From Isurus oxyrinchus (Eukaryota): a DNA stretch of 64,000 nucleotides. Location of the stretch: contig JANJGN010000015.1 of the NCBI GenBank assembly GCA_026770705.1, positions 81,468,001 to 81,532,000 on the forward strand. Reading direction: 5' to 3'. Below are positions 2,795 through 55,344 of the stretch, piece by piece. How positions within the stretch are numbered: position 1 is the first letter of the stretch; every line of letters starts with the position of its first letter. The notes beneath the pieces were generated by a model that made no database searches, was not told the DNA's origin, and saw only the letters and a list, made by a program, of their open reading frames with translations. A program made the position numbers and the translations under genes.

Positions 2795-3090
2795 CTTACA
2801 GGATGTGGGCATCACTGGTTAGCCCATTTATTGCTCATCCCTAATTGCACTTGAGAAGTTGGTGGCGAGCCACCCTCTTGAACAGTTACAGTCCATCTAG
2901 TATAGGTATACCCATGGTGCTGTTTGAGATGGAGTGCCAGGATTTTGACCCAGTGACAGTGAAGGAACAGCGATATAGTTCCAAGTCAGGATGGTGTGTG
3001 ACTTGGAGGGGAACTTGCAAGTGGTGATGTTCCCATGCATCTGCTGTTCTTGTCCTTCTAGGTGGTATTGATCATGGGTTTGGAAGGTGA
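2795..3090 (-). mobile_element. LINE 3' end (partner of the SINE at 14531)
   Basis: ggatgtgggcatc...atttattgctcatccctaattgc is the reverse complement of the SINE tail at about 14842-14915; coding remnant YHLEGQEQQMHGNITTCKFPSKSHTILTW. Confidence 0.7.
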
Positions 3091-4200
3091 CATCAGTTTG
3101 TAACATAGTTTTCTCTCTCTCCAAAGGAAAACAATGGCATAGAAGCACACCACAGAAAAAACACCTGACCAGCATCATTGGAAACTGTGTGTCTGGAGGA
3201 AGAAGACAAGTGTCACTGCAGGTCCTTAAAGCTCCAGACATTCATCCCAGCCTCCCACCCTATATCACTTTGTAGAAAGAATAGATTAGAAAATGTCTTC
3301 TCTCCCTGAGTTGTTACAGATAGACCTACAGTGATCTGTCAAGCTGCTTTGTCAAAATTATACCCAAATCTACTACATTTTAGCGATCTGAGCGATCAAC
3401 TAATCTTAGACACTGTTACGATACTTTAAGATGATTTAAATGGTCAAAGTATCCCTTAGTTGTACATTACCGATGGGAAAATCCATCAACAATTATCACC
3501 CCAGTGGACATGAATTAATTATTTGGAGATAGTGGGTTCTAATAGATTGATTTGTTTCCAATACACAGATGTACTCCCTTTAAGATGGAAATTTTGATTT
3601 TGAGCCGGTTATAGTTAGTACCAACGCCAGGAGTAGATTGAGAAAACAGAACAGCTAAGGAAGCTGGTTAAAATACTAATGAGAAACATTTAAAAAATGG
3701 AAAATTGGAAAGCAGTGCTTTGTGCTCTGACAAGGAAGGAAAATTATAAAAAGACAACGAGAAACAGAGAATAATTGCAGCCTAGAAATTTAATTCAATC
3801 AAAACTCCCAAACAGACAGCGCTTGCATCAAAAATGTGAAAATCCAAATAGATTAAAAACAATATGAAGAAAACACAAATTTAGCCACATCAGTAGATTA
3901 CCTTCGACAGGTAGGTGCAAGGAAATTAACATGGAAAGTTAAGCAAAAAGAGGTGAATTTAAACAAATTTTTAAATAAAAGATCGAGTTAATCAATTCCT
4001 TAAGTGGCATTCTCAAAAAACAGGGAAACCAAATTAGTGCAGGTGACATGAAAAAACATATGCTGTGTGAAAAGGAAATGCAGGAATGGAGAAGAGTTAA
4101 AATGTATGATGCCTACCATAGCCACCATCCTCACTTACCCACAAGATAGGGAGAGCACCAATTCTTCATGGAAAGAGGTAAACTATAGTAATTATGGTTT

Positions 4201-4439
4201 TGTTAAATGTTGGACTATACCTTTAAGAATAGTCCTGTGATGTAAGATCACATGATCTGTGTAAACCAATGTGTTAGCAGTGCAGGCTACCTGCATAGTC
4301 AATGTAGAGATAGAGGTTGAATTGAAAGCACGTGTGTAGCTGCTGCTGGCTGTATTGTAAATAAACCTAATGTTTCCACTTAGAAAGTTGTCTGCAGATC
4401 AACTCTATTATATATAGGTGACAAGGCCACACTACAACA
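4201..4439 (+). repeat. Putative solo LTR inserted into the retroviral pol
   Basis: TGTT...AACA termini and internal aataaa; no TSD seen. Confidence 0.4.
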
Positions 4440-5607
4440 TAAACCTAAAGAATTAGCAGAGTCTGGGAGCAAGCTTGTGCATAACTGAGGCATGTGCAAG
4501 AGGACTAGGGTCTGGAAACATGATCTCTTCACCATGGGTCAAAGTATTTTTTTTTCCGACGATGCTTCTTGAAATTTTCTCAAGGGCTATTTTTTGAGTT
4601 TCAGGGGTTCCTTTCTCATTTTCACATGAAGCATTCAGGATACTTTTCTTCTTTAATTCCTTGGTATTTTTTCTTACATTTGGATTCTAATCGCAATTTC
4701 CAATTTGCATTAATAAACTAAGATGAAATTAATCTCGAGGTCTAACTATTTGATGCAATGAAACAGAAATCACAGGATTATAACAGAAGAGCAAAGGAGT
4801 AAAACCTACAGAAAAAGTTTAATGTAAAAAATGAGATTCATCTAATCAAGAATTTCAATTTTACGCCAATTGAGCTTCGCTCACAACTTTGATGAATGTT
4901 TCCTCGCTGTGCAGGATAAATTACATCCTTGCAACTCAATTCTGGTTTATGATACCTTTTTAGAAACGTCAATTCAAAGTACTGAGTTACTGAACAGAAT
5001 TTACAAAAACTGAACCACCAGATAATGCTCTATTATCTCTTCCAAATAACCCCCGGTAGAGTGGGATACACAAACACAAACACGTACACACGCACACACA
5101 CACAGTCTGGGCTGCTGCCCACCAATGCCGACTCCTTACATGGTGCAAACCCACGGCAGGCCAGGACACAGTTTAAGCTGGATTCACCAGGACCTGGAGC
5201 CGGGTCCTAGTTAGTCTCTGCTGGCCGGGGAACAAGCAATGGACAGAGAGTGAGCATGGAGCCTGTGGCAGCTCTGTAAAGGAAGTGACCCATTTAATTA
5301 CAAAATTAAGGTGTTAATTAAATTAATAGAAGTTGAGAAAACAAAATACACTATATAGCATTTGCTAGTGCAAAGAAGCTCATTAAAAAGACGACACAGA
5401 AGCGCAGGTATTCGTAAGAAAATTACTGTTGGAAAACAGCCAAACACCTGTGACAGAAATTAGTTGGTTAAAACAAAATGACCCTCAAAGGTTCACATAA
5501 AAACAGCTAAAGTAAGGATTGATAAGACTTATTAAAATAATTGTTTTTGTGGTATACAATGGACAATGCCAGCCTGTTTCAATGAACCATAGAGAGAAAA
5601 GTCCATG

Positions 5608-6072
5608 ACCAGAATTTTTTGTGGCCTATGCGGACGCCCGCCGGTCCTAACTCAGCATTAAATTATGCGTAATGACGTCTGGACCGGTTCCTCACGCCAC
5701 CTCGTGTAATTACGGTTGGCGGATGCGCACAAATGTCGGAAGCATGCTCATTGTCAATAAAAGGGCCTATTAAGGCCATTAAAGGTCCAATTGTCTTGAA
5801 TTTTGAGAGGCCTGTGCAGTTTTACATTTGGTGCACGGGTCAAATGGGCAGCCGGGATTCGGGATTATTCCGACTTTCTGGATCCAGGGCAGAATATAAG
5901 GGCCAGAAGGAATAGAGAGATGAGGGAGAGTTTCAAATTGAGTTGTGAGACTGTGCATTACTGATTATTTAGTGAGGAATCCTGTTCATTGACATTACTT
6001 TAGCAGGCTTAAATCATTGCTGAGGCTTTCTGCAGTCAAGCCTCTACATAATTCAGGTCAAACCTCTGCCAG
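5608..6072. mobile_element. Harbinger-type non-autonomous DNA transposon splitting the integrase N-terminus
   Basis: CpG-rich insert starting ccagaatttt within AT-rich viral sequence; shares attaaggcc motifs with the Harbinger end at 7369. Confidence 0.5.
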
Positions 6073-7031
6073 GTAAATGAACAAAACATTATTGGCGGCC
6101 TAACATGTTGAAACATTGCAAGACTAATGTTGCAAATTATACAGCTTGTAACCAGGTGAACAAATCTTCTGCCATAAAAGCACCACCAATAACAGTTAAA
6201 AAGGCAGACCATCCATTGGATAAGATTATAATTGATTTTATTGGGCCTTTACCAAATATGTGCTTGTTTGTGTTGACTATTGTACTAATCTTGTATGCTG
6301 TAATCTCACCAAAAATGTTACGGACAGTGCACTTACTAGCGCTTTTGAAAGAGAGTTAATTCTTATTGGAATGACGAGGGTATTGAACTCTGATCGAGAC
6401 GATGTCTTTACTTCTAAAGCCTATCAAGATTGGACAAAAGAAAAAAGATCTCCCTCGAGCTGAGGATTCCTTATCACCCTGAATTAGCAGGGATGGTGGA
6501 AAGGAAAAACTATGAAGTAAAGGTCTGATTAAATGACTTTTGATATGCGGCAGTAAGTGGACCACCATACTAAAGGAGATACAAATGGCTTTAAATAATC
6601 AACCACTACAGTCAAGTGGTACAGTGTCACCTGTAACTCCACATTAATATTGTTTGGTACACATACGAACATACCTTTCACACAGAACACTAGCCTAGTA
6701 ACTGCAGACATTACAGGGCATAGAGTAGAACAGCTACAACTTAAACAGGAAGTCACTCGATGATACATGAAATTGAACAGAAACAGAGAGAACGTAAAAG
6801 ACAGAAAACATTATTTAATAAAGTCTGGTCTCCTCAAATTGGAGAACCAGTACAAGAAAAAAGGAATCCAGCACAGGGTTCATTGAGACCGAAGCAGAAA
6901 AAAACCAATGCAGATAGTAAAAGTCCACAGTGATAGAGTGGTCGAGATTGAATTTATGGGACCAAGTGATAAGAAAGTTATAAAAAAGGTATAAGACAAT
7001 TTAAAAAGGTGTCCAGTTGGATTAGAACACA

Positions 7032-7368
7032 ATGGATATATTCAAACCATTCAAGTATATTCCGATCAGGCAGTTTGCAGATGTACAATAAGTCAGGATA
7101 CAGATGGAACTCTCTCATAAAAAAATTACAACTGCTATCAGAAATACTAAAAATAGCTTGCTCAGCCAATTCAAAATGGAATTTGTAACACTTTCAACTG
7201 AAAAAGCGCGATGGAAACTTACACCCCAAGGTGTCAAAGAAAAGTTAAATGTTACTAAGCCTTTCGGAAAATTACCAAATTCTGCCTTAATATCTGAATT
7301 AAAAAGGCATGAAATTATCAACATAAAAACATGGGTGTGTCCTTATTTTGGCTTTACTATGAAATTAT
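7032..7368 (+). pseudogene. ORF downstream of and overlapping the pol end (env or accessory-gene position), truncated by a Harbinger insertion
   Basis: ATG 7032 is in frame with ORF 7104.. across one stop; same A-rich composition as the integrase; no recognisable motif. Confidence 0.4.
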
Positions 7369-9420
7369 GGCCAGGGTTTTGCCCTCGTTTGGTGGGCATG
7401 GCAGGGGCGAGCGGGAGCGGTCGGGAAGCCCGTGATTGGGCCACAACCGTGATTTCACACTGGCGGGCCAATTAAGGCCCTCCCAGCATGAAACATGCAC
7501 TGCAGCGCTCAGCGCTGCCTGTGTAGGGGGAAGGAGGGCGAGCATGGAAGTTCACGCATGCACGAGGGTGTGCGCAGGTAAAGTTCCCTGAGGCACAGAG
7601 TTGCCTCAGGGAGATGAAGAGTTTGAAAATAAAAAAGAAAGATTTTAAAAATGTTAACAACATGTCCCCTCATGTGACTCAGGGACATGTTAGAAATTAG
7701 TTTGAATTTTTTTTATTTTCGCCATCGTTCGCTAGGCCCAGGGTCTAAGATGGCCCTTCTCATTTTTGCAGATGACTGAGAACTATTGTCACCGAAGACT
7801 GCAGATGACCAGGGAACTGGTTGGTCACATATGCCACCTGCTGCCGTATTTGGCACCATGGGGACATGGAGGGCATCCACTGCCAGTGGCCGTGAAAGTG
7901 ACTGCGGCACACAATTTTTACGCCAGTGGCTTCTTCCGGGGCTCCACAGGTGACCTGTGTGGGATCTCACAAGCCACCATGCACAAGTGTATCCAGAAGG
8001 CCATAGATGTCATCCTCACGAAGGCACAATACTTTGTGCATTTCTCCCAGGATCAGGAAAGCCAGGAAACAAGACTGCTGGGATTTCCACAGATCTCTGG
8101 TTATCGAAAGTGCAGGGTGCCATCGACTGCCCTTGCATGGCACTTAGATCTCCATGGCAATAGCTGGTTTGCAACCACCACAAATGTATCCTGCAGGTCT
8201 GCACATAATTCCCAGGGAGTGTCCATGACTCCTGCATCCTTAACAGGTCTCAGATCCCTGATGTCTTCCAGGGTCTAGAGTGGCTGCAAAGTTGGCTCCT
8301 TGGGGTCAAAGGCTGCCAACAGAGGATATGGTTGATGACTCCCAGGTGGCAGCATCAGGCTACAGTAGAGTGGCAGTATAACCATCCAGACTTTGGTGGA
8401 GCAAGCGACATGCATTTTGAAAATGAGGTTCCGATGCCTTGACAGGTCTGGAGGAGCACTGCAATACAGTCCACCGAGGGTGTTGCGCAACATTGTAGCT
8501 TGCTGCGCACTACACAGACTGGTGCTGCAACCGGGGGAACAACCTGGCAGAGGAGGAGATGGAGGAGCTGCACATCTCACCTGATGAGGAAGATGTTAAA
8601 GAGGATGACGTTGATGAGGTCCTCAAAGGTGAGAATTCTGGCGATGAGGCCATCAAACTTGCCAGATAAGGCAGGCGCACTCAGGAGCCATTCACAGCCG
8701 TAAGATTCGTGGAGGGATGCAGTGAGGACAGTCCTGCATCTTGCATATGTGAACATTTGACTCCTGGGTTGCTGCTGGCAGTGCACATACCCTCTGTACT
8801 CAGGATCATGTCATGGAGAGGCAGAGTGGAGGTCCTGATAGTCACTAGATTCCAGAAGATGATGATGACATGCAGTGAGGACACTCCACATATCTTCACA
8901 TTGCCTCTGTGAATACCTGACTCCTGATTGGCTGAGGGCAGTTCACTTGTGCTCTGTGATCAGGGTCATATTTTGGAGACGCAGCTGTGAAACTTTAAAT
9001 GCACCTGATCCTTTGTCAGCCTTCAGCACCTGACCCCTTCAGGAGCACAGCATCACCGGTCACAGATGCTGAAGAGATGCTGGGGGGTGGGGCAGCCTCA
9101 CCTCAAAGATGCTGAGAGCACTCAGACAGAATGACTCAACTTTGTGACACCTGCCCATTACATTGTGGCAGCAATAAGAAGCACCATTGAGGTGCAGACA
9201 TCAATAATGTGTCCAGGGATTGTGAAGCTTGACCATCACTTGGATCTGAAGGTTACACACTGCACAGGGAAAAGACCCTGGACTGAGACAGGCCTTCATC
9301 CTGTGCAGGAACCAAGATTTCACATCTGAGTGACACGACCAAGGAGCCACAGTCAGGGAGACATTCTTGGGAGTTTATTTACAATATTGAACATTATGTA
9401 CAAGTGACTAACACTCGTGC
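7369..9420 (+). mobile_element. PIF/Harbinger transposon with decayed HARBI1-like DDE transposase (about 7766-8700)
   Basis: LPVAVKVTAAHNFYASG, GDLCGISQ, VQGAIDC, HDSCIL, LKMRFRCLDRSGGALQYSP, ACCALH spread over shifted frames. Confidence 0.9.
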
Positions 9421-9481
9421 CCAGGGTGCTTCCTGATTGGGCACAAGTGCAGTTTATTACTGCCTGAGCCATGTGCTGTTG

Positions 9482-40996: not shown

Positions 40997-43900
40997 TATT
41001 ATGATACAGCCTATGGTAAAGGTTGAGTTGCTCAAAACCCAGAGGGAAACTTGAAACAACTGTTGTAGCCCATTTTTGCAATTTGTATGTTTCGAGATGC
41101 AGCTTTTGAATTCAATAGTACTAAGACCAATGAGTCTCAAGGGTTTTTTTTTATAAAACTAAATTAAACATTTATTAATACAAGAAAAATTGTAAGCACA
41201 TACATTTGTCTAAAAAATCTCAATTATAATAACTACAAAAATTCCCTAATTAATCTGATTATCCATTACACCCCTGTTAAAGCAACATAAAAACTCATAG
41301 ATTTAAAGAGACACCTGGAAGAGCACACCCTGGACAGTCAAAAAGATAAAAGCAAAATACTGTGAATGCTGGAAATCTGAAACAAAAACAAAAAATGCTG
41401 GAAAATCTCAGCAGGTCTGACAGCATCTGTGGAGAACTCTGAAGAAGAGTCATACGGACTCAAAACGTTAACTCTGTTTTTCTCTCTACGGACGCTGTCA
41501 GATCTGAATTCAAAATGAGCCTTGGGTCCTTGCAGACAGTCTTGAAGTTTACAGGCTGGAGGCGCCTTACACTTGATGGTGCTTATAATGCCTCTGCCTT
41601 ACACACAATCTCCTTTCTCCTTTATACATATCTTTCTCTTTGAATGTAAATTTTCCATTATATTGCTTGGTTTTTAATTTTACCTCTTCTAAGCATCCTT
41701 TGATTCCACCAATTTCATTAGTAAACTGAAAAAAATAAACAAATTGCTTGGCATCTTCTAGCTAGGTGCAAGATTTCACCCTCTGTTTTGAATGCTTTAT
41801 TTAAAAATGCAAATTGCCTCCTTGACACCTATGTTTCTAAACTTCCCCATGTTTATCTAATTACCATTTCAAACCTACTTCTTTCTATATATCAAAGCCT
41901 CTAGACCAGCTGGCTTTAATCCAATTAAGACACACACACACATAGACACAGACAGGACTAAACTATATTTTAAAAAATAATTCCCAATAACATTATAGAT
42001 GCTAACCTCTTCATGATATCTTCCTCCTTGTCAAAAAATGAACCATCATAATTCTAAAAGATGGCTTAATTTTTAATAACCCATCTTCCACTATTTCTTA
42101 TACTTAACTATATATTTACACTACCAGATGCATGCATTAACATAACAATATACAAGTCCTTACTATCAGCAGAAATCATTCTAGTTCAGTGTCCAGGTTT
42201 TAAAATGTCCAATTTTTCCTTCAAACTCTTGATAATGCATCTGTAAATAGATTCTCTCATCCAGCAACATGTATTATATATAGATTAAATGGTTGCAGTA
42301 ATAAACTCCATCTGAATAGCCTTGCACTTCTTGTCTTGAAATTTGTCCAGAAACTTTAAAGGATTGTGGTCTGTATAAGCAATTGTTTTTGACAAGTTGT
42401 TTGGCAAATAGATGTCAAAATGCTGCAATGCCAACACCAAACTCAATGGCTCCTTTTCAATCATTGATTATCTTCTCTGTTTTGCATTCAACTTCCATCA
42501 AAAATACCCTATCAGTTTTTCAATTCCAATGTCATCTTCTTGTAACAGAATGGCCCCAATGTCTATATTGGTTGCATCAATGGCCAACTTAAATTATTTG
42601 GCGTAATTGGGTACTTCCACAACTGGTGTTTTAATTAATACAGTTTTCAAACTATCAAATGCCATCTGACACTCCAGTGTCCATTGAAACTTCTTGTTCT
42701 TTTTTAATAGTTCAGTCAGTGGAGCAACCACACTGCTAAAATTTGGTACAAATTTCCTGTAAAACCCACTGATGCCCAGAAATCTCAAAATTTCTCGTTT
42801 TGTTATAGGCACTGGGAAATCCATGACAACCTTGACTTTCACATCCCTTGGAGCAACCATGTCCAATAGCATGGCCTAGAAACATAACTTGTGCTTTGCA
42901 AATTCACTGTTTGCCAAGTTCATCACCAGATTAGCTTCTTATAATCTAGTTAAAATTCTTCCAGATGCCTTAAATGCTCATCCCACGTCTGGCTGAAAAC
43001 TATTAAGTCATCAGTATAAACAGCACAATTGCTTAGACCTATAATTAATTTGTCAGTCTTTGAAATTTCACAGGTACATACTTCATATCAAATGGCATGA
43101 TTTTAAACTGATGTAGTCCATTTGGCATCACAAAAGCCGATATCACCTTTGTTCCCTCCAATAACTGTACTTGCCAATATCCTTTTAGCAAGTCAATCTT
43201 TGTGATAAATTTTGAGTATCCCATTTTCTCAATACAATCCTCTAACTGTAGTACAGGATATGAATCTGCCTTTGTCACCACATTCACCTTTCGATAGTCC
43301 ACAGTCTTTGTGTTCCATCCAGTTTCGGTACCAGTACAATAGGCAAACTTCAATTACTGCAACTAGACTCAATGATATCATTGTAAAGCATGAAATCAAT
43401 TTCTTTCTGTGATAACTTTGCCAGATTTAAATTACAAGGATGTTGCCTTATTGAAGATGAAACTGTTATAGAGACATCATGTATAGCTTATTTCCACAAA
43501 TAGCTTTGTATTATTGCAATAGCCTTTTCCAAATCACTTTGACACTTGTCTGGAAGGTGACTCAGTATTGCATTTATGTTTTCAAGTACCCAGTTTATCC
43601 AGTTTGATTAGAGGAAAATCAGAGTTTTGCATTTCTATCTCTTTCTCACTATCTACCACTACTAACATCTCCTTTTGGTCCTCTTCCCTTTCAAAATACT
43701 TTTTAAGCATTATTACATGACACACCCTCTGTTTCTTTCTTCTATCTGAAGTATTTATTAAATAATTTATTTCACTTAATTTCTTTTCGATCCTGTAAGG
43801 CCCACTAAATCTTGCCTTTAATGAGTCACTCAGTACAGCTAACAGAACTAGCAATTTCTCTCCAGCAATAAAACTGTGAGCTTTAGTTTTCTTATCTGCC

Positions 43901-46487
43901 TTCACTTTTATCACTTGCTGTGATATCTTTAAATGTCCCCTAGCTAACTCACATGCTCTGTTTAATCTCTCACTGAAGTTTGATACATAATTCAGGAGAG
44001 TAGTTTCTGGATTTTGACCTACCAATTTCTCATAACTTAATTTCAGTGATCCCCTTACCTTATGACCATAAGCTAGTTCAAAAGGACTAAAACCAGTCAA
44101 TGGAATTCCCCTATCCCAATCCTGTGGATAATCCTGACAGTAAGCATTCATCATAGTTTTCAAAGTTTGATGCCATCTTTCCAAAGCCCCTTGTGACTCT
44201 GGATGATAAGCTGCTGACTTACATTGTCTTATCCCCAAGCTGTTCATTAATTCCTTAAACAGCTGTGACATAAAATTTAATCTGATCTGATTGTATTTCT
44301 TTAGGTAAACCATATCTTGTAAAAAAAATTGTTAACTCTTACACAATCTTCTTAGTTGTAATATTTCTTAAAGGTATTGCTTTAGAAAACCTCAACTTTC
44401 GAATGTCACTTTTACCCTCAGCACCCTCTTTTTTATGCTGAGAAAAAAAACTTCCTGGGAATTTCTACCTACTCTTTCTCTTCCCTGATTACCTACCTTC
44501 CTTTCACCTTCCCACTTTCTATTCTTTTCAGTTTTAAAAGGGTGACAAAAAAAGGATTAGCTCTATGACTAACTCATAATCATCAGCTATCCCAGCTGCT
44601 TGCCTTACAGAATCAATCCTCTGTTCCTCCACATGAGTTCTCACTACTGAAGGGATTGAATCTTTAAATTCTTCCAAAAGAATTAAGTCTCTAAGAGCTG
44701 CATATGTTGTCTCTATTTTTAATGTCTGTCAAATTTACTTTGTTTTATTTTCTCAAACTCATTATAAGTTTGCCCAGGCTGTTTTCTCATATTCCTAAAT
44801 TTCTACCTGTATGCTTCAGGAACCAACTCATATGCACTCAAAATAGCCTTTTCACCATACCTTAATTCACCAATACTTCTTCTGATAGCGAAGCATGTAC
44901 CTCATGTGCTCTACCACCAACTTAGGCTGTAACAATAATAATGTCCAGTTTTCCTGTGGCCATTTCTTTTGTTTATCTATCTTCTCAAATGAAATAAAGA
45001 ATGCTTCAATATCCCTTTCAAACTTTGTAAGAGCTTGTACAAAGTTAAACATCTCCCCAGTGGGTTCTACTCTGGAGATAAATCTATCCTCACCTCCTGG
45101 CATCTCTTTCTTAACTGCCAATTGGAATTCTCTCTCTCTCTTTTTCTCTTTCCTCCTTCTCTATATTCACAATTTCTAACTCCCTTTTCTTTTTCTCTCC
45201 TGCCTTTCTGCCTGTTCCCTTTGGAATGCCCTGTGTCTTTCCTTTTCTTCCAATTGAATTGTTTTCATTTTCAACTGAATTTGAGCCCATTCTAATGAAT
45301 CACCCCTGTCTCTCAAGTATTCCTTCCAATTTTTAATGCTGTGCTATCACATCAATTATGTCTGATTTCTTAACCCCCGCAGGTAATCTCAATTATAGTT
45401 TATCTGCCAACTCTGTTAACTTACTCTTGTATCCTTTTTGTAACCCAATCAGAGTTATATCTACTACTCCCAGACAAGTCTTAGCAATTACCAAAGCCAT
45501 TTTTGCAGTCTCACCACTTCAAAAATAATTCACACCCACTCCTGAATTCAAAGTGCTTCTCATAGTCGTAGCCTTAAGATTCACCAATTCCAAAAAAATT
45601 AAGGAATTTCAAATATATCCCACCAAGGGCCCCCAGTTACTATGACACAGCTGATGGTAAAGGCTGAGTTACTCAAATCCCAGGGGGAAACTTGAAACAA
45701 CTGTCATAACCCATTTTTGCAATTTGTATGTTTCAAGATGCAGGCTTTAAATTCAGTAGTAATGAGGCCACTGAGTCTCAAGAGCTTTTTTTTATAAAAC
45801 TAAATTAAACATTTAATTGTAAAAATTATAAGTGCATACATATGTCTACAAAATTTCTACTATAATAACTGCAAATATCCCATAATTAATCTGGCTCTCA
45901 GTTACATTGCCTGTTAAGGCAACAGTAAAACTCATAGATTTAAAGAGACACCTGGCAGAGCACACCCTGGTCAGTCACATTCAAAATGAGTTTATTTCAA
46001 CCCTGGATCCTTGCAGAGAGACTTGAGATTTATAGGCTGGAGTCTTCTCACATTTGATGGATCTTACAATGCCTCTGCCTTACACATAATCTTCTTTCTC
46101 CTTTATACATATCTTTCTCTTTGAATGTAAATTTTCCATTATATTACTAGGTTTTTAATTTTATCTCTTCTAACAATAACATCCTTTGATTCCAAAAATA
46201 AACACAATGCTTGGCATCTTCTAGCTAGGTGCAAGATTTCACCCATTCTTATGAATACTTTATTTAAAAATGCAAACTTCCCCCTTGACACCTATGTTTC
46301 TAAACATCCCATGTTTATCTAATCACCATTGCAAATCTACTTCTTTCTATACATCAAAGCCTCTGGACTAGCTGGCTTTAATCCAATTAAGACACATACA
46401 CATAGACACACATAGACACAAACACCACTAAACCTATTTTAAAATACAATTTCCAATAACATTATTGACATTAATCTCTTCATGAAA
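40997..46487 (-). mobile_element. Gmr1-like Gypsy LTR retrotransposon (gag-IN-RT-RH), internally deleted
   Basis: Two LTRs (40997-42018, 45638-46487); tRNA-Pro-like PBS 45617-45635; gag 44400-45500; integrase YHPESQGALERWH 43600-44400; RT KIDLLKGYWQ 42900-43450; RH after RFLGISGFYRKF. Confidence 0.92.
41341..41505. mobile_element. Penelope-like terminal fragment inside the 3' LTR
   Basis: Absent from the 5' LTR (compare 45961-45990); contains ctcagcaggtctg and a hammerhead-like core. Confidence 0.85.
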
Positions 46488-50143: not shown

Positions 50144-53100
50144 TGTTAATGTTGAATTTGTGCTGCAATAAAATGCAGCTGTCCCCAGTTGGGGAAGGAT
50201 TAGGGAATCATTGTAAGAGTATATAAACCAGTTCATCTCTGACTTTGTTTTGCTATCTTGGAAATAAACCTGTTTTAAGGTACAGGCTAATTTAGGTTCA
50301 TTCTTCCTCAACATACAATCATTGCAATTAACATGGTAGAAGAGGATGAACTTCAAGCCTTGGTTGATCAGTTGCTGAATAAGAAGTTTTTGCCTCTATC
50401 CCCTGAGGGAAAAAAAGAAACATACTGCTGCTGACAAACTCAGTGATGAAATGGCAGAAGGACATTGCAAAATCTGAGACTTTGACTACCCACCCATCTT
50501 TTTTCGGAGGTCAAACCACATCAGCAATGGATAAACGAAGTTACCCCGAAAGAAGCAAGGTATTGTTTTGGCTTTGTCAATACTAGCAAAAAGTAAGATT
50601 AGGAGTAAAGTCTTAAGAGTTGGACATAATGACTTGGGCACTGAGGAGGGATTAGCCCTTCCATTACAGTTTTTAGATAGGTTTTACAAAAAGAATGATT
50701 TGTTGGAAGCATATGTAGCATGGTCAATCTTTGATAGATTTAAGAAAACAGATCAGAATTACCTGGAAAAACTCAGCAGGTCTGGCAGCATCGGCGGTTC
50801 TGTCGAAGGGTCATGAGGACTCGAAACGTCAACTCTTTTCTTTTCCGCCGATGCTGCCAGACCTGCTGAGTTTTTCCAGGTAATTCTGTTTTTGTTTTGG
50901 ATTTCCAGCATCCGCAGTTCTTTTGTTTTATTTAAGAAAACAGATGATCAGTTCATGGAGGAATATATTAAGGACTTTGATAGGTGGTATAAGAGACTGA
51001 AAAAGTTTAACCTAATCTCAGAGTCTGTATTTGCATTTAAGTTACTCGATTGTGCACACATTTCTCATATCGACAAACTTTTGGCATTGGCAGGAGTTCA
51101 AGTCCATGGGAAAGACCCTCTCCTCGACCAAATGGCTGCTGCAATAAAAAGATTTTTGGGAAAACAGTCATTTCCAGTGACTTTCCTATCAAATACAAGC
51201 AACTCTGCAGTAAAGCAAAGGATGGAGGATTTCATACTGAATTTCGAGATCGACAAGATATTAAATGCAGATTCTAGTACAAATATGATGTTGCTGATAG
51301 ATGGTTGTACTTCTACCCAATTTGAGAGTTGAGACAAAAAGCAGGTCTGTGACAGTGACCGTAGGTGTTAAAACCTGAAAAATGCATGGGGAGTAGTAAA
51401 TTGGTGTTATTGGTGTGAGTCCAAGTATCATTACATAATGAATTGTCCGCAGTGAAAGAATTGTGTTTTTGAAGTAATGCATGAGACAGATAATTCCGAG
51501 GCTGACTGCCATGAAGAAATTGTGTGTTTGAATCTGGTGATAAGCATTTTGATGGCTGATTCATTCAACTGTGCACTTTTAGCTAGCAGTTGCACTCCCA
51601 CAGTGTGTGAGGTGGATTGGCTTAACTGCTACCTGGAGTCTCTTGATGAGGCAGACTGGCAGAAGGTTAAGGAATATGAAAGTTCTGCCTGTTTCAAGTT
51701 TAAGGTAATAACATGCCAACATAACGTGTCTTCCAAAAGCATAATCTCCCTGCAAGCTGGGATCAGTCTCTTCATCAGTAGTGATGTAGTCTCTAGTGAG
51801 ATACCTCTATTGTTAAGCTGATCTTGAAGAAAGCACAGATGAAGCTAGACATGGAGAGTGACAGAGTGATTGTGTTCAGAAAAATCGTGGATTTACATTT
51901 TACTCAGTCAGGCCATCACTGCCTGGCATTAATGAAGCCAGATATTTCTCATCAAAGTTCAAGCAGTCTTGTCAACTTCTAGGAATGAAAGTTTGGTGAA
52001 TAAAAAGAACATTATTAGAAAGTTTCACAGACCATTTGCACATCCAGCACCACAAAAACTGAAAGCTCTATTGTGGGATGCTGGAGTGGCTGATGAAGAA
52101 TACAACATGCTTGCCAAGCAAATCACAACTCTATGTGCCAATTGTGTTAAATATCAAAGGACACCACCACATCTTGTTGTGAGTCTGCCACTAGCCAGGG
52201 AATTTAATTATGTGGTGGTAATGGACGTTAGAGTATGGAACAAGGATCAGGGTTTTTTTTTACTACACTTTGTAGATATAGCAACCAGATTTAGCTTATT
52301 TACGGTAATATGTGGTCAGGACAATCGGACCATTGTTGATAAGGTCATGGAGAAATGGGTGGGTACCAGATTAGGAACACCAACAAAATTCCTGGAGGGA
52401 AACTTGTGAATGAGGAATTTCGAGATGTGTAAAAATATTTGAATATCATAGTTATGCATACTTTGGCTGAGAGCTCATTCAGCGTTGGTTTGTGCGAGAG
52501 GAATCATGCAGTGATAGATGACATATTGCACAAAATAGTGACTGATCAACCAGATTGCAAACGGCATTGACATGAGCAGGGCATGCATGGAATTCTTTAC
52601 AAATGGTTTGGGAGGGTATAGCTCGTACCAGTTGGTGTACAGGAGGAATCCAAAGTTGTCTTCAATGCTATTGGATGCTCCTGCTGCTCCTGAAGAGCTA
52701 ATGATAGCTCCTGTTTTTTTCTGCCCACTTGGATGCCTTGCCTGCAGGCAGAAAATCTTTCACCAAGGCTGAAGTGTCCGAAAGAATTAGGAGAGCATTG
52801 CGACACCACATAAGACCATCTGAGGTAAAATTTAGCTAAGGTGATCTGGTTTATTATAAGAGTCTGGGGCAAAAGGAATGGAAAGGCTGAGGGAAAGTTA
52901 TAGGACGTGAAGGGAAAACTGTGATTATTCAACATGGAATCAAACAATAAAAGCTCATTCCTCACAGGTCCTCACAGTCCATTCGGAATGAATTAGCAAA
53001 TACTGACAATGTGATAGATGATGAAGCACCATGTGCCTCCCATACTCATTGATCTTGTGGAGCTGAGCCAGAGGGACAAAATATAATGGATCAGGAGTTG

Positions 53101-55344
53101 GATATCAGTAGAAAATTGGATTGTGGTAAACAGGAACAGGCTAATTTGTCCAAAGGTCAGCTGCCCTAAGTGGGTAACATATCGTCCAGAAGGATCGGAT
53201 AATTGGAGGGATGCAACAAAAGTGGGACGGGCAGGAAAATTTACTGGAAAATAAGAATTGGATGAATACCAGGAAGAGGAAAAACAGTGAAGGCCAAGGA
53301 CAAGGAAAACGGAGTATGAGAATGGAAAGTAAGGAAGCGGAGCTCAAGTTACAGTAATGGGTTGGGTGATGAATCCAGGGTGAGGAAACATTCACAAATA
53401 GTGGATAAGGCCTCTGACTGGGTAAGGACAGGAATCTAATAATAGGAACCTGAAAAAACTTAAACAGGCAAGTAAGGGGTCACAGCCTGACTTGACGACA
53501 AAATAGAATGGAGAATGGCGAGTCATTACGACAAAGTAGCAGAAGCAGGAGACCCCATGACCGAGAGGTTTTTGTAACGGCTTACAAGTTGGGGATAAAG
53601 GTATATGGTAGGCTAAACAGAGGGAGTTGGACAGTTGAAGGCAGTTTCATGTATATTCAGAAGTCCCAAATAGGGATCAGGCAGTTTTATCACATAGTTG
53701 GGTCTGCATGGAAAAGGTCTTACCGGAAGGCTAGATTAGTGTCCCAGGGATTTGAAGAATGCATAATAGATGAAGTCAGAATGGATTTGCCCAAAGCAGG
53801 GAAGGTAATTTTTTATTTTTTCTGGCCCTTTTAGCAGTGTTTTCATGGGAGTGTATGTCAATAGATATAAAAGCTGCATTTCTGAGAGGGTTCACCTCTT
53901 GAGGGAAGTTTTTCTCAAATCTCCTAAGGAGGCATTTGAAGTGGAGGGAAAATTCTGGCAATTGAAAAAGTGCATATACGGTTTAAATGATGCTTCTAGT
54001 GTGCGGTACTTTTCAGTTCGATCAGTGTTGTTAAAGTTGGGTTCTCTCTAACTCAAGGTAGGTTCTGCCATGTTTTACTGGTACCATGGCGTGAAACTGG
54101 CAGGCATCTTCTTAATGCATCTTGAGACTTCCTATGGAGTGGAACTAGTGAGCTTCAAAACAAAGTTATTGACAAGATTAGGACAGACCTTAAGGTTGAG
54201 AGTCAGGCTAATAGGGTCTTTAAATATATTGGATTAGAAATAAAACAGTATAGGTCTGAGGTTACTTAGCATCAGCAATCGTATTTAGAAAGTGTTAGCC
54301 CTATTGCAGTCAGTCAGGCTAAGTCTTTGCAAAAAGATCCAAAGATGAGACAGAACAGCTGTGAAGTCTGATTGGGCAATGAAACTGGCTGGGTGCTCGA
54401 GATGAGGCCAGATGTGAGTTTTGATGTTCTTGAACTGAGTATCATAACGAAACATCCCAAGATCTAGGATATCTTATAGGTGAACAAAACTTAAAAAAGT
54501 TAAAGATGGAGAAATGTGTACTGAAGTATCCATCATTGGGTGATCCTAGAATATAAAATTGATTGTGTTCAGTGACACCTCTCACACAAACCTTGATTGG
54601 TTTTCAACTGCAGTGGGTTTTATAATATTTCTTGCGGGTGAAACTGAAGTGTTGGCTCTTGGTTTCGGAAGCAAAGAAAATAAGGTGACGAGTAAAAAGC
54701 ACCCTGGCTGCAGCGACTCTTGCACTAGTAGAGGCAGTTGACATAGCACTCTTTTTATTTAAAACTTTAGGGGAAATACTAAAAGGGGGAAATGATGAAG
54801 GAAATGTCCCAGTAGAGTGTTATATTGACAATCGATCCCTTAGAGATAATGTACACTCCATAAAGAGTGTAAGTGAAAAAAGATTACGAATTGACATAGC
54901 AAGTTTAAAACAAATGGAGAAAAAGGAAATCTCTAAGCTCGAGTGGGTTGATACAAGTCATCAGTTATTAGATTGTTTAGAAAAGGACGACTTAAGATGT
55001 GAGCTTTTTTTTGGAACTGGGTGACTTATTTTTCTATCTTCAGTTTTTTTATTTCTCTTAAAAGGAAATGCACTTGTGTTCTTTTTTAAAAAGGAAATTT
55101 GTTAATGTTGAATTTGTGTTGCGATGAAATGCATGCTTTACATTGGTAATTAACCATAGCCATCCCCAATTGGGGAAGGATTAGGGAATCCTTGTAAGAA
55201 TATATTAACCAGCTCACTCCGAGCGTCTGGGAGGAACTGGGAGAATCCGTGACTTTGTTTTGCTATCTTGGAAATAAACCTATTTTAAGGTACAGTCTAA
55301 CTTCAGGCTCATTCTTCCTCAACACAGAATTATTGGAATTAACA
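50144..55344 (+). mobile_element. Full-length GalEa-type Ty1/Copia retrotransposon, decayed
   Basis: LTRs TGTTAAT..ATTAACA (50144-50333, 55100-55344); PBS tggtagaagaggatg; PPT 55088-55097; TSD cctac/cgtac; gag CX2CX4HX4C, IN HRPFAHP, RT KARLVSQGFEE and YGLNDA, RH RLRIDIA. Confidence 0.93.
50754..50929. mobile_element. Penelope-like fold-back insertion in Copia gag
   Basis: 16-bp TSD atttaagaaaacagat (50738-50753, 50930-50945); gag frame resumes at FKKTD. Confidence 0.92.

Follow-up and report, generated by a model that had tools for sequence, protein, structure and literature searches.

Foamy-like endogenous retroviruses (FLERVs) of cartilaginous fish have been published from the elephant shark (CmiFLERV; PMC5512871) and the small-spotted catshark (ERV-Spuma.0-Sca; PMC10699275). 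The phylogenetic position of the elephant shark elements is given as unresolved in the account of PMC5512871. As described in PMC10699275, 12 chondrichthyans were screened and ERV-Spuma.0-Sca was reported only in the small-spotted catshark. The element is annotated there at 9220 nt, with LTRs of 866 nt each and an env of 1326 nt that extends as far as the 3' LTR; a Gag domain was not recognised, its age was put at ~36 Myr, and it was reported to group with teleost FLERVs. Snakehead-like and epsilon-like ERVs were found in PMC4422223, and the gecko elements ERV-Spuma-Ppi/Gja were called the oldest known in 2019 (PMC6669660). Deep foamy virus history and a Palaeozoic date for retroviruses rest on assumed co-divergence of virus and host and on very few cartilaginous-fish sequences of unresolved position (PMC5512871). 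A multi-locus elasmobranch family with paired LTRs and loci shared between species is datable by host orthology, with no rate assumption.

The window analyzed here is a stretch of 64,000 nt from Isurus oxyrinchus (GCA_026770705.1, contig JANJGN010000015.1, positions 81,468,001 to 81,532,000 of the forward strand). An earlier reading of its letters, made before any database search (the sequence-only reading), had placed an old and possibly unreported foamy-virus-like integrase at 5560..7010. With a probability of about 0.93, the window carries a dead copy, much reduced by deletions, of a foamy-like ERV family that was likely in the germ line of an ancestral shark more than 100 Myr ago. The parts of the element in window coordinates are given below, with copies elsewhere in the genome named by contig (C).

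5275..5607, + strand: stub of the 5' LTR (start of U3, beginning with TG, ~335 nt), with 80-85% identity to LTR starts
5608..6072, no strand assigned: foreign DNA of 465 bases at the first deletion junction, outside the provirus and partly a GC-rich interspersed repeat
6073..7030, + strand: decayed foamy-type integrase (second half of the zinc-binding domain, catalytic core, C-terminal SH3-type domain)
7031..7110, + strand: 5' start of the putative env region, with 82-83% identity to the C18 and C21 copies until 7110
7105..7368, + strand: internal env fragment, with 74-75% identity to the C18, C21, C1 and C9 copies

The integrase (IN) motifs listed by the sequence-only reading were all found on the + strand in the stated order, spread over three frames of 6070-7400. 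The frameshift-aware alignment that it had proposed was run against a foamy integrase profile and scored 300 over window 6090-7006 (reference residues 83-373); eight shuffles scored 21-29 and the reverse strand 34. The integrase is interrupted by six frameshifts, located near 6256, 6447, 6524, 6646, 6756 and 6898, and by two stops (6534, 6992). Its catalytic D, D and E are still readable; in the zinc finger both histidines are deleted and the first cysteine is substituted. A collinear match that includes the C-terminal domain had been claimed, and the alignment to PFV integrase does run from the zinc-finger cysteines to that domain, with 104 of 275 aligned residues (~38%) identical to the PFV-like reference. 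Pfam matches on the window were, in order, rve (5.4e-5), a weak H2C2 (0.13) and a weak SH3_11 (0.05), and PFV integrase was the best PDB match of two stop-free window pieces (E 2.7e-6 and 2.5e-4). Word-based protein searches with the window piece and with a piece of the C21 copy gave no match; a HMMER scan gave matches.

The foamy-built profile used to read broken copies can favour a foamy placement; unjoined window frames, a control that reduces this bias and does not remove it, gave 44.7, 35.0 and 34.4 bits on the mammalian foamy profile vs at most 28.5 bits on three Gypsy-type profiles. A Ty3/Gypsy, GIN or Ginger integrase might resemble foamy viruses through shared ancestry of the core, and Gypsy-type profiles did give the X-joined window row 80-110 bits; the foamy profile gave the same row 180 bits. 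The window also holds two ordinary Gypsy-type remnants, which served as internal controls: an integrase remnant at 1 to ~1330 (+) and pieces of RT and integrase at ~42200-44400 (−). These genuine Gypsy-type sequences scored 88 on the foamy profile vs 300 for the integrase.

Of the interval 5560..7010, the integrase part was upheld from 6073 on, where family integrase homology begins; its start was not, 5275-5607 being LTR and 5608-6072 unrelated DNA. The stub at 5275-5607 shares 80-85% identity with the beginning of solo LTRs and with that of each of the two LTRs in the C5:58.6 Mb copy. It corresponds to the first third of an LTR of ~1.1 kb, lies at K2P 0.13-0.19 from 20 LTRs, and received 22 of the 44 genome DNA matches from the upstream search. 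That it is an unrelated host repeat was considered and rejected, since other copies run on into family R-U5 and end at the primer site. The DNA at 5608-6072 had no match to family gag, pol or LTR, and 5701-5851 matched unrelated repeats. The expectation that pol would continue upstream once inserts were removed failed, with no tblastn match of the collected proteins (E<=0.01) upstream of 6073 within 2901-7800 and no match to a Pol or Gag HMM either. The sequence at ~4530-5274 is a different interspersed repeat that adjoins the LTR stub, where it is cut off, and it does not continue elsewhere in the window. In the window copy the remainder of the LTR is missing along with the primer site, gag, PR, RT and RNase H, and IN has lost its start.

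On the 3' side, 7031-7110 was assigned to a putative env by its position in the C18 and C21 copies, where it is continuous with IN. The fragment 7105-7368 sits between the two foamy-Env HMM matches of related copies. It is separated from the env start (to 7110) by a deletion of ~1.6-1.8 kb and is followed by unrelated repeats. No 3' LTR or additional family sequence was found anywhere in the 64-kb window. The window copy is a dead, heavily deleted fragment of a foamy-virus-like ERV, without coding function today. Elsewhere in the window, an AT-rich low-copy stretch (3330-4200) had three weak matches in the rest of the genome, and ORF pieces at ~50800-55050 (+) may derive from an LTR element, now decayed, of copia or a related type. 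A decayed repeat at ~7730-9430 (+) resembles a Harbinger-type DDE transposase and is common to several fetched loci; its related copies in L014 and L017 match DDE_Tnp_4.

The host assembly (G000) measures 4.98 Gb, and a globin exon in it has 1GCW/1GCV, shark haemoglobin, as its best PDB matches (E 2.7e-22), which supports a cartilaginous-fish host. G000 was searched at the DNA level with window 6073-7350. The 30 matches, of 66-84% identity, represent at least 12 dispersed loci including the window and at least 9 short pieces, most of them on C21. Better copies, which the earlier reading had advised looking for, are among the 12 dispersed loci; they show the complete layout of a retrovirus, including gag, env and a primer site of foamy type. 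The order LTR-gag-PR-RT-RNase H-IN-env-LTR was read piecewise in the C9, C5 (three), C18, C1 and C6 copies. In the C9 and C5 copies IN is preceded by protease, RT (with YVDD in C9), connection and RNase H, and the family has a retroviral RNase H after a tether. An RT-less, non-autonomous family, as the C5:58.6 Mb copy taken by itself would suggest, was rejected on the grounds that the C9 copy and two other C5 copies keep PR and/or RT. No intact copy was found, frameshifts or stops being present in 14 of the 14 RT regions read.

On C21, a piece of ~300 bases from the integrase start lies in several copies inside a GC-rich tandem array (74.36-74.37, 72.89, 89.58-89.60 and 105.43 Mb; L026, L047, L048, L050, L052). 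At C6:170.3-171.3 Mb (L016-L018, L022-L024, L104-L109), at least five provirus copies lie in duplicated segments that are 85-96% alike together with their flanks; three of these copies have lost pol and kept both LTRs and a perfect primer site.

The central foamy Gag domain (Gag_FV_central, PF20672) was matched at six places in G000, four of them in the family (best E 7.7e-6), and in 0 of 14 control genomes. An Env HMM was built from six reference foamy Envs (L118-L123); its SU and TM parts were matched collinearly in the C18 and C1 copies (18.6-19.9 bits, iE 4e-6 to 1e-5). These Gag and Env matches are weak and come from other copies, not from the window copy. Towards its C-terminus, the Gag of single copies is so fragmented as to be unreadable. 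The env region of the family measures ~3 kb. In the C18 and C21 env regions, no Pfam Env family was matched, and PF00523 (paramyxovirus F) gave no match at E<=1 in three frames. HMMs of Bel1 and Bel2 had no match in any fetched locus, that is, there was no Tas or Bet homology.

Family LTRs are ~1.1 kb long with TG...CA ends, and two bases past the LTR starts a primer site that is complementary to host tRNA-Lys(CTT) at its 3' end. A perfect 18-nt site, the same as that of 6/6 reference foamy genomes, is present at three C6 loci (L086-L088); the site matches at 17/18 in the C6:171.26 Mb copy and is decayed in three more. The motif occurs 65 times in G000; among eight other matches tested, five end a tRNA-Lys(CTT) gene, two were called tRNA-Asn and one had no tRNA. 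For target duplications, both ends could be located in 10 of 18 solo LTRs; in these, 30/40 flanking positions matched at 4 bp vs 12/50 at 5 bp and 16/60 at 6 bp. Exact 4-bp duplications flank 4/10 solo LTRs, two of which are duplicates of one locus. A 4-bp duplication is not specific to foamy viruses, as most gammaretroviruses are also reported to give 4 bp (PMC4422553).

A region of ~0.9 kb between env and the 3' LTR is common to five copies (L034:7891-8817 and parts of L031, L041, L015 and L019/L020). One frame of one copy contains three hydrophobic stretches. Neither Pfam (under E 0.02) nor PDB gave a match for the region, and a codon-position signal was absent. A receptor-like membrane protein was rejected on the same grounds; the region may represent an accessory gene.

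For placement, the IN piece of the C21 copy was compared with 1.84 billion representatives using phmmer. The top matches were a Logan Gag-Pol (P0001; 1.7e-17) and feline foamy virus Pol (P0002; 5e-17), followed by a three-repeat nematode Gypsy protein, a Scyliorhinus torazame protein (P0004) and a Pelodytes protein (P0005). In PDB the same piece matched PFV at 1.3e-21, the HIV type at 0.08 and Ty3 at 0.14, and the PFV alignment reached the C-terminal domain. Viral contig scans with P0170 and P0025 for orthoretrovirus outgroups gave no match, and because of this the outgroups were three gamma/epsilon-type proteins and Gypsy-type proteins. The trees have no rows named as GIN, Ginger, lokiretrovirus, ERV-L/S, CmiFLERV, CoeEFV or ERV-Spuma.0-Sca.

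The IN tree was computed under LG+G4 from 319 columns and 36 of 105 rows, a selection made for computing speed. The window and five other copies formed a clade (100/100, UFBoot/SH-aLRT) that was sister to two other G000 loci (96/91). The spumavirus-like identity proposed at the outset was supported here, as the family fell inside a 17-row foamy clade (100/99), with which a quick 59-row tree agreed. It formed a separate branch outside the clade of mammalian and frog (P0005) foamy viruses; the node joining the shark clade with P0001 and P0004 (94/84) is not starred. In the RT tree (36 rows), three family copies and 11 other G000 loci made up one clade (100/98) of two lineages. The shark elements and P0001 joined the mammalian foamy viruses (99/96) to the exclusion of Larimichthys P0177/P0197. 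Holding shark and teleost rows together gave p-AU 0.033 in a test that was named after the tree had been seen and that covers one teleost lineage. P0177/P0197 were considered as lokiretroviruses, which was rejected; their QYPLN and YIDD motifs fit the description of teleost FLERVs, and by these motifs they are probably a Larimichthys FLERV.

In favour of the Gypsy-type reading, the majority of the 150 phmmer matches listed are Gypsy-type proteins. Forcing the family to the Gypsy side cost 82 log units and was rejected (p-AU 0.0022), and the grouping with Ty3/Gypsy that had been named as the refuting result did not occur among the Gypsy-type rows sampled. Against it there are also the retroviral RNase H of the family, which follows a tether, its env, its foamy Gag domain and its tRNA-Lys primer site. 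GIN and Ginger elements are not known to have LTRs, RT or env. A Gypsy, GIN or Ginger origin is vanishingly improbable.

The family could also belong to the lokiretroviruses or to another class III group (ERV-L/S, snakehead-like). Neither lokiretroviruses nor ERV-L/S have a labelled row in the trees, and cartilaginous-fish ERV RTs are described as mostly clade III (PMC11089739). The lokiretrovirus Env is reported to resemble paramyxovirus F, with no significant similarity to retroviral Env (PMC7947760); the family Env matches foamy Env, and PF00523 was unmatched in the env frames of two copies. The foamy Gag domain, the primer site and an IN alignment to PFV through the C-terminal domain weigh in the same direction. 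A class III assignment is very unlikely, and a foamy-like ERV family is the preferred identification.

With mammalian foamy viruses (PFV, SFV, FFV) the family shares an IN collinear to the C-terminal domain (~38% identity), an RT with YVDD, the Gag central domain, an HMM-detectable Env, an identical tRNA-Lys primer site and the 4-bp duplication (4 bp is reported for PFV in PMC4422553). Unlike them, it stands on a separate branch, has no Tas/Bet homology, and is endogenous and dead. The tuatara element is described with the same primer site (PMC6669660). Teleost FLERVs have a similarly foamy-like Pol, whereas their gag and env are reported to be without detectable foamy homology (PMC5210030) and those of the family are detectable. 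The gecko elements are comparable as very old foamy elements shared between species (at least 96 Myr; PMC6669660); they are described as a single-copy intact env under purifying selection, whereas the shark family is a multi-copy, decayed provirus.

The window copy could instead belong to a lineage already described from sharks, CmiFLERV or ERV-Spuma.0-Sca, with only the host species new. Both are foamy-like ERVs published from cartilaginous fish (PMC5512871, PMC10699275), with which the family was compared by description only, and the CmiFLERVs may be paraphyletic, in which case one branch could be the clade of the window. By the annotation in PMC10699275, ERV-Spuma.0-Sca differs from the family in LTR, env, post-env region, Gag domain and age: as described, it has a shorter genome, a short env, no post-env region and young LTRs, and the LTR divergence of the family is about four times as great. 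The catshark protein P0004 (S. torazame) lies on a separate branch with P0001 (98/97) and is 29% identical to the window row over 104 columns. Membership in a described lineage is unlikely. The sequence-only reading had called the element possibly unreported, which holds for the lineage and not for the kind, foamy-like ERVs of elephant shark (PMC5512871) and catshark (PMC10699275) having been published. What is probably new is the lineage, set apart from ERV-Spuma.0-Sca by the description of the latter. No report of it was found in the literature searched, a weak negative in which subscription journals were thinly covered.

According to an index listing, 20 sequencing runs contain the stretch or part of it, four from organism A and 16 from organism B. 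No RNA run was among those listed, a result without bearing on expression. Over seven contig pieces from three runs, organism B showed 75 differences in 3987 bases (1.9%). Its contigs bridge the junctions of flank and LTR (5112-5443), LTR and insert, insert and IN, and env and deletion (6599-7473). The element was therefore inserted, cut down by deletions and invaded by nested inserts before A and B separated, and it is shared with a second species.

K2P distances between paired LTRs were 0.122-0.194 at 10 loci, 6.5-10 times the A/B distance; five of these pairs are in one duplicated C6 region, leaving ~6 independent loci, and each pair covers part of the LTR (196-908 sites). With the 0.5e-9 per site per year assumed in PMC10699275, this divergence corresponds to 122-194 Myr, and at 2.2e-10, as assumed in PMC4422223, to 278-440 Myr. 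Both yearly rates are assumptions of those papers, on which the ages depend. The rate reported for the epaulette shark, 7e-10 per generation (PMC10587355), fits a slow clock without supplying a rate per year. Since the window copy lacks an LTR pair, its age is borrowed from the family. Its IN differs from that of other copies by 0.15-0.23 and its LTR stub from solo LTRs by 0.13-0.19, which places it in the same wave as the rest of the family. Entry of the family into the ancestral shark germ line more than 100 million years ago is likely, and the old age read from the decayed letters was corroborated by the paired LTRs of other copies together with the sharing with organism B.

Retention of the fragment through co-option by the host would also account for its presence in two organisms that differ by 1.2-1.7% over the IN and env pieces, and for the catalytic D, D and E that can still be read. 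The six frameshifts and two stops argue against this. The upstream non-viral flank differs by 1.2% and 2.7%, in the same range, and organism B and one organism-A run have further indels inside the fragment. Co-option is extremely unlikely. Between copies, IN differs to a similar degree at the three codon positions (0.170/0.173/0.188), the pattern that decay following insertion should give. The TM part of env has a third-position excess (0.131/0.146/0.233) in five comparisons that all share one reference, a weak sign that may reflect selection on env while the virus spread.

For the foamy-like ERV family, the following history is envisaged. An ancestral virus would have infected the germ line, as established foamy virus biology suggests, with reverse transcription primed by tRNA-Lys as in foamy viruses and a DDE integrase inserting with a 4-bp stagger (compare PMC4422553). 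At least a dozen proviruses would have resulted, together with many solo LTRs formed by recombination. Before organisms A and B split, deletions would have removed most of the window copy, insertions would have been added to it, and it would have undergone neutral decay.

Taken singly, the fragment is ordinary; the points of interest are the probable great age of the family, its foamy-type Gag and Env and its position in the trees. We tentatively propose, at somewhat less than even odds, an undescribed shark-specific foamy-like clade made up of two sister lineages, with over 20 loci, all decayed. It would have kept a Gag, an Env and a primer site of foamy type, would be closer to the foamy viruses of tetrapods than teleost FLERVs are, and would have integrated ~120-190 Myr ago or earlier. 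If true, it would be older than the 96-Myr gecko elements and would offer a direct fossil calibration for marine retrovirus history. If this position, closer to tetrapod foamy viruses than that of teleost FLERVs, holds, teleost FLERVs would be a deeper separate lineage, or early transmission across classes would have taken place.

A second foamy-like lineage in G000 comprises 11 RT loci, all broken (C20:54.83 Mb, L075; C20:44.80 Mb, L077-L078; C16:104.31 Mb, L081; and L130-L138), which form a clade (95/97) sister to the family of the window. The best match seen to foamy Env TM came from L077 (iE 3e-11). P0001, which in the RT tree stands closer to the shark clade than any other outside row, is an intact foamy-like element of 1687 aa; its Gag and Pol share a single open frame, which is not the case in mammalian foamy viruses.
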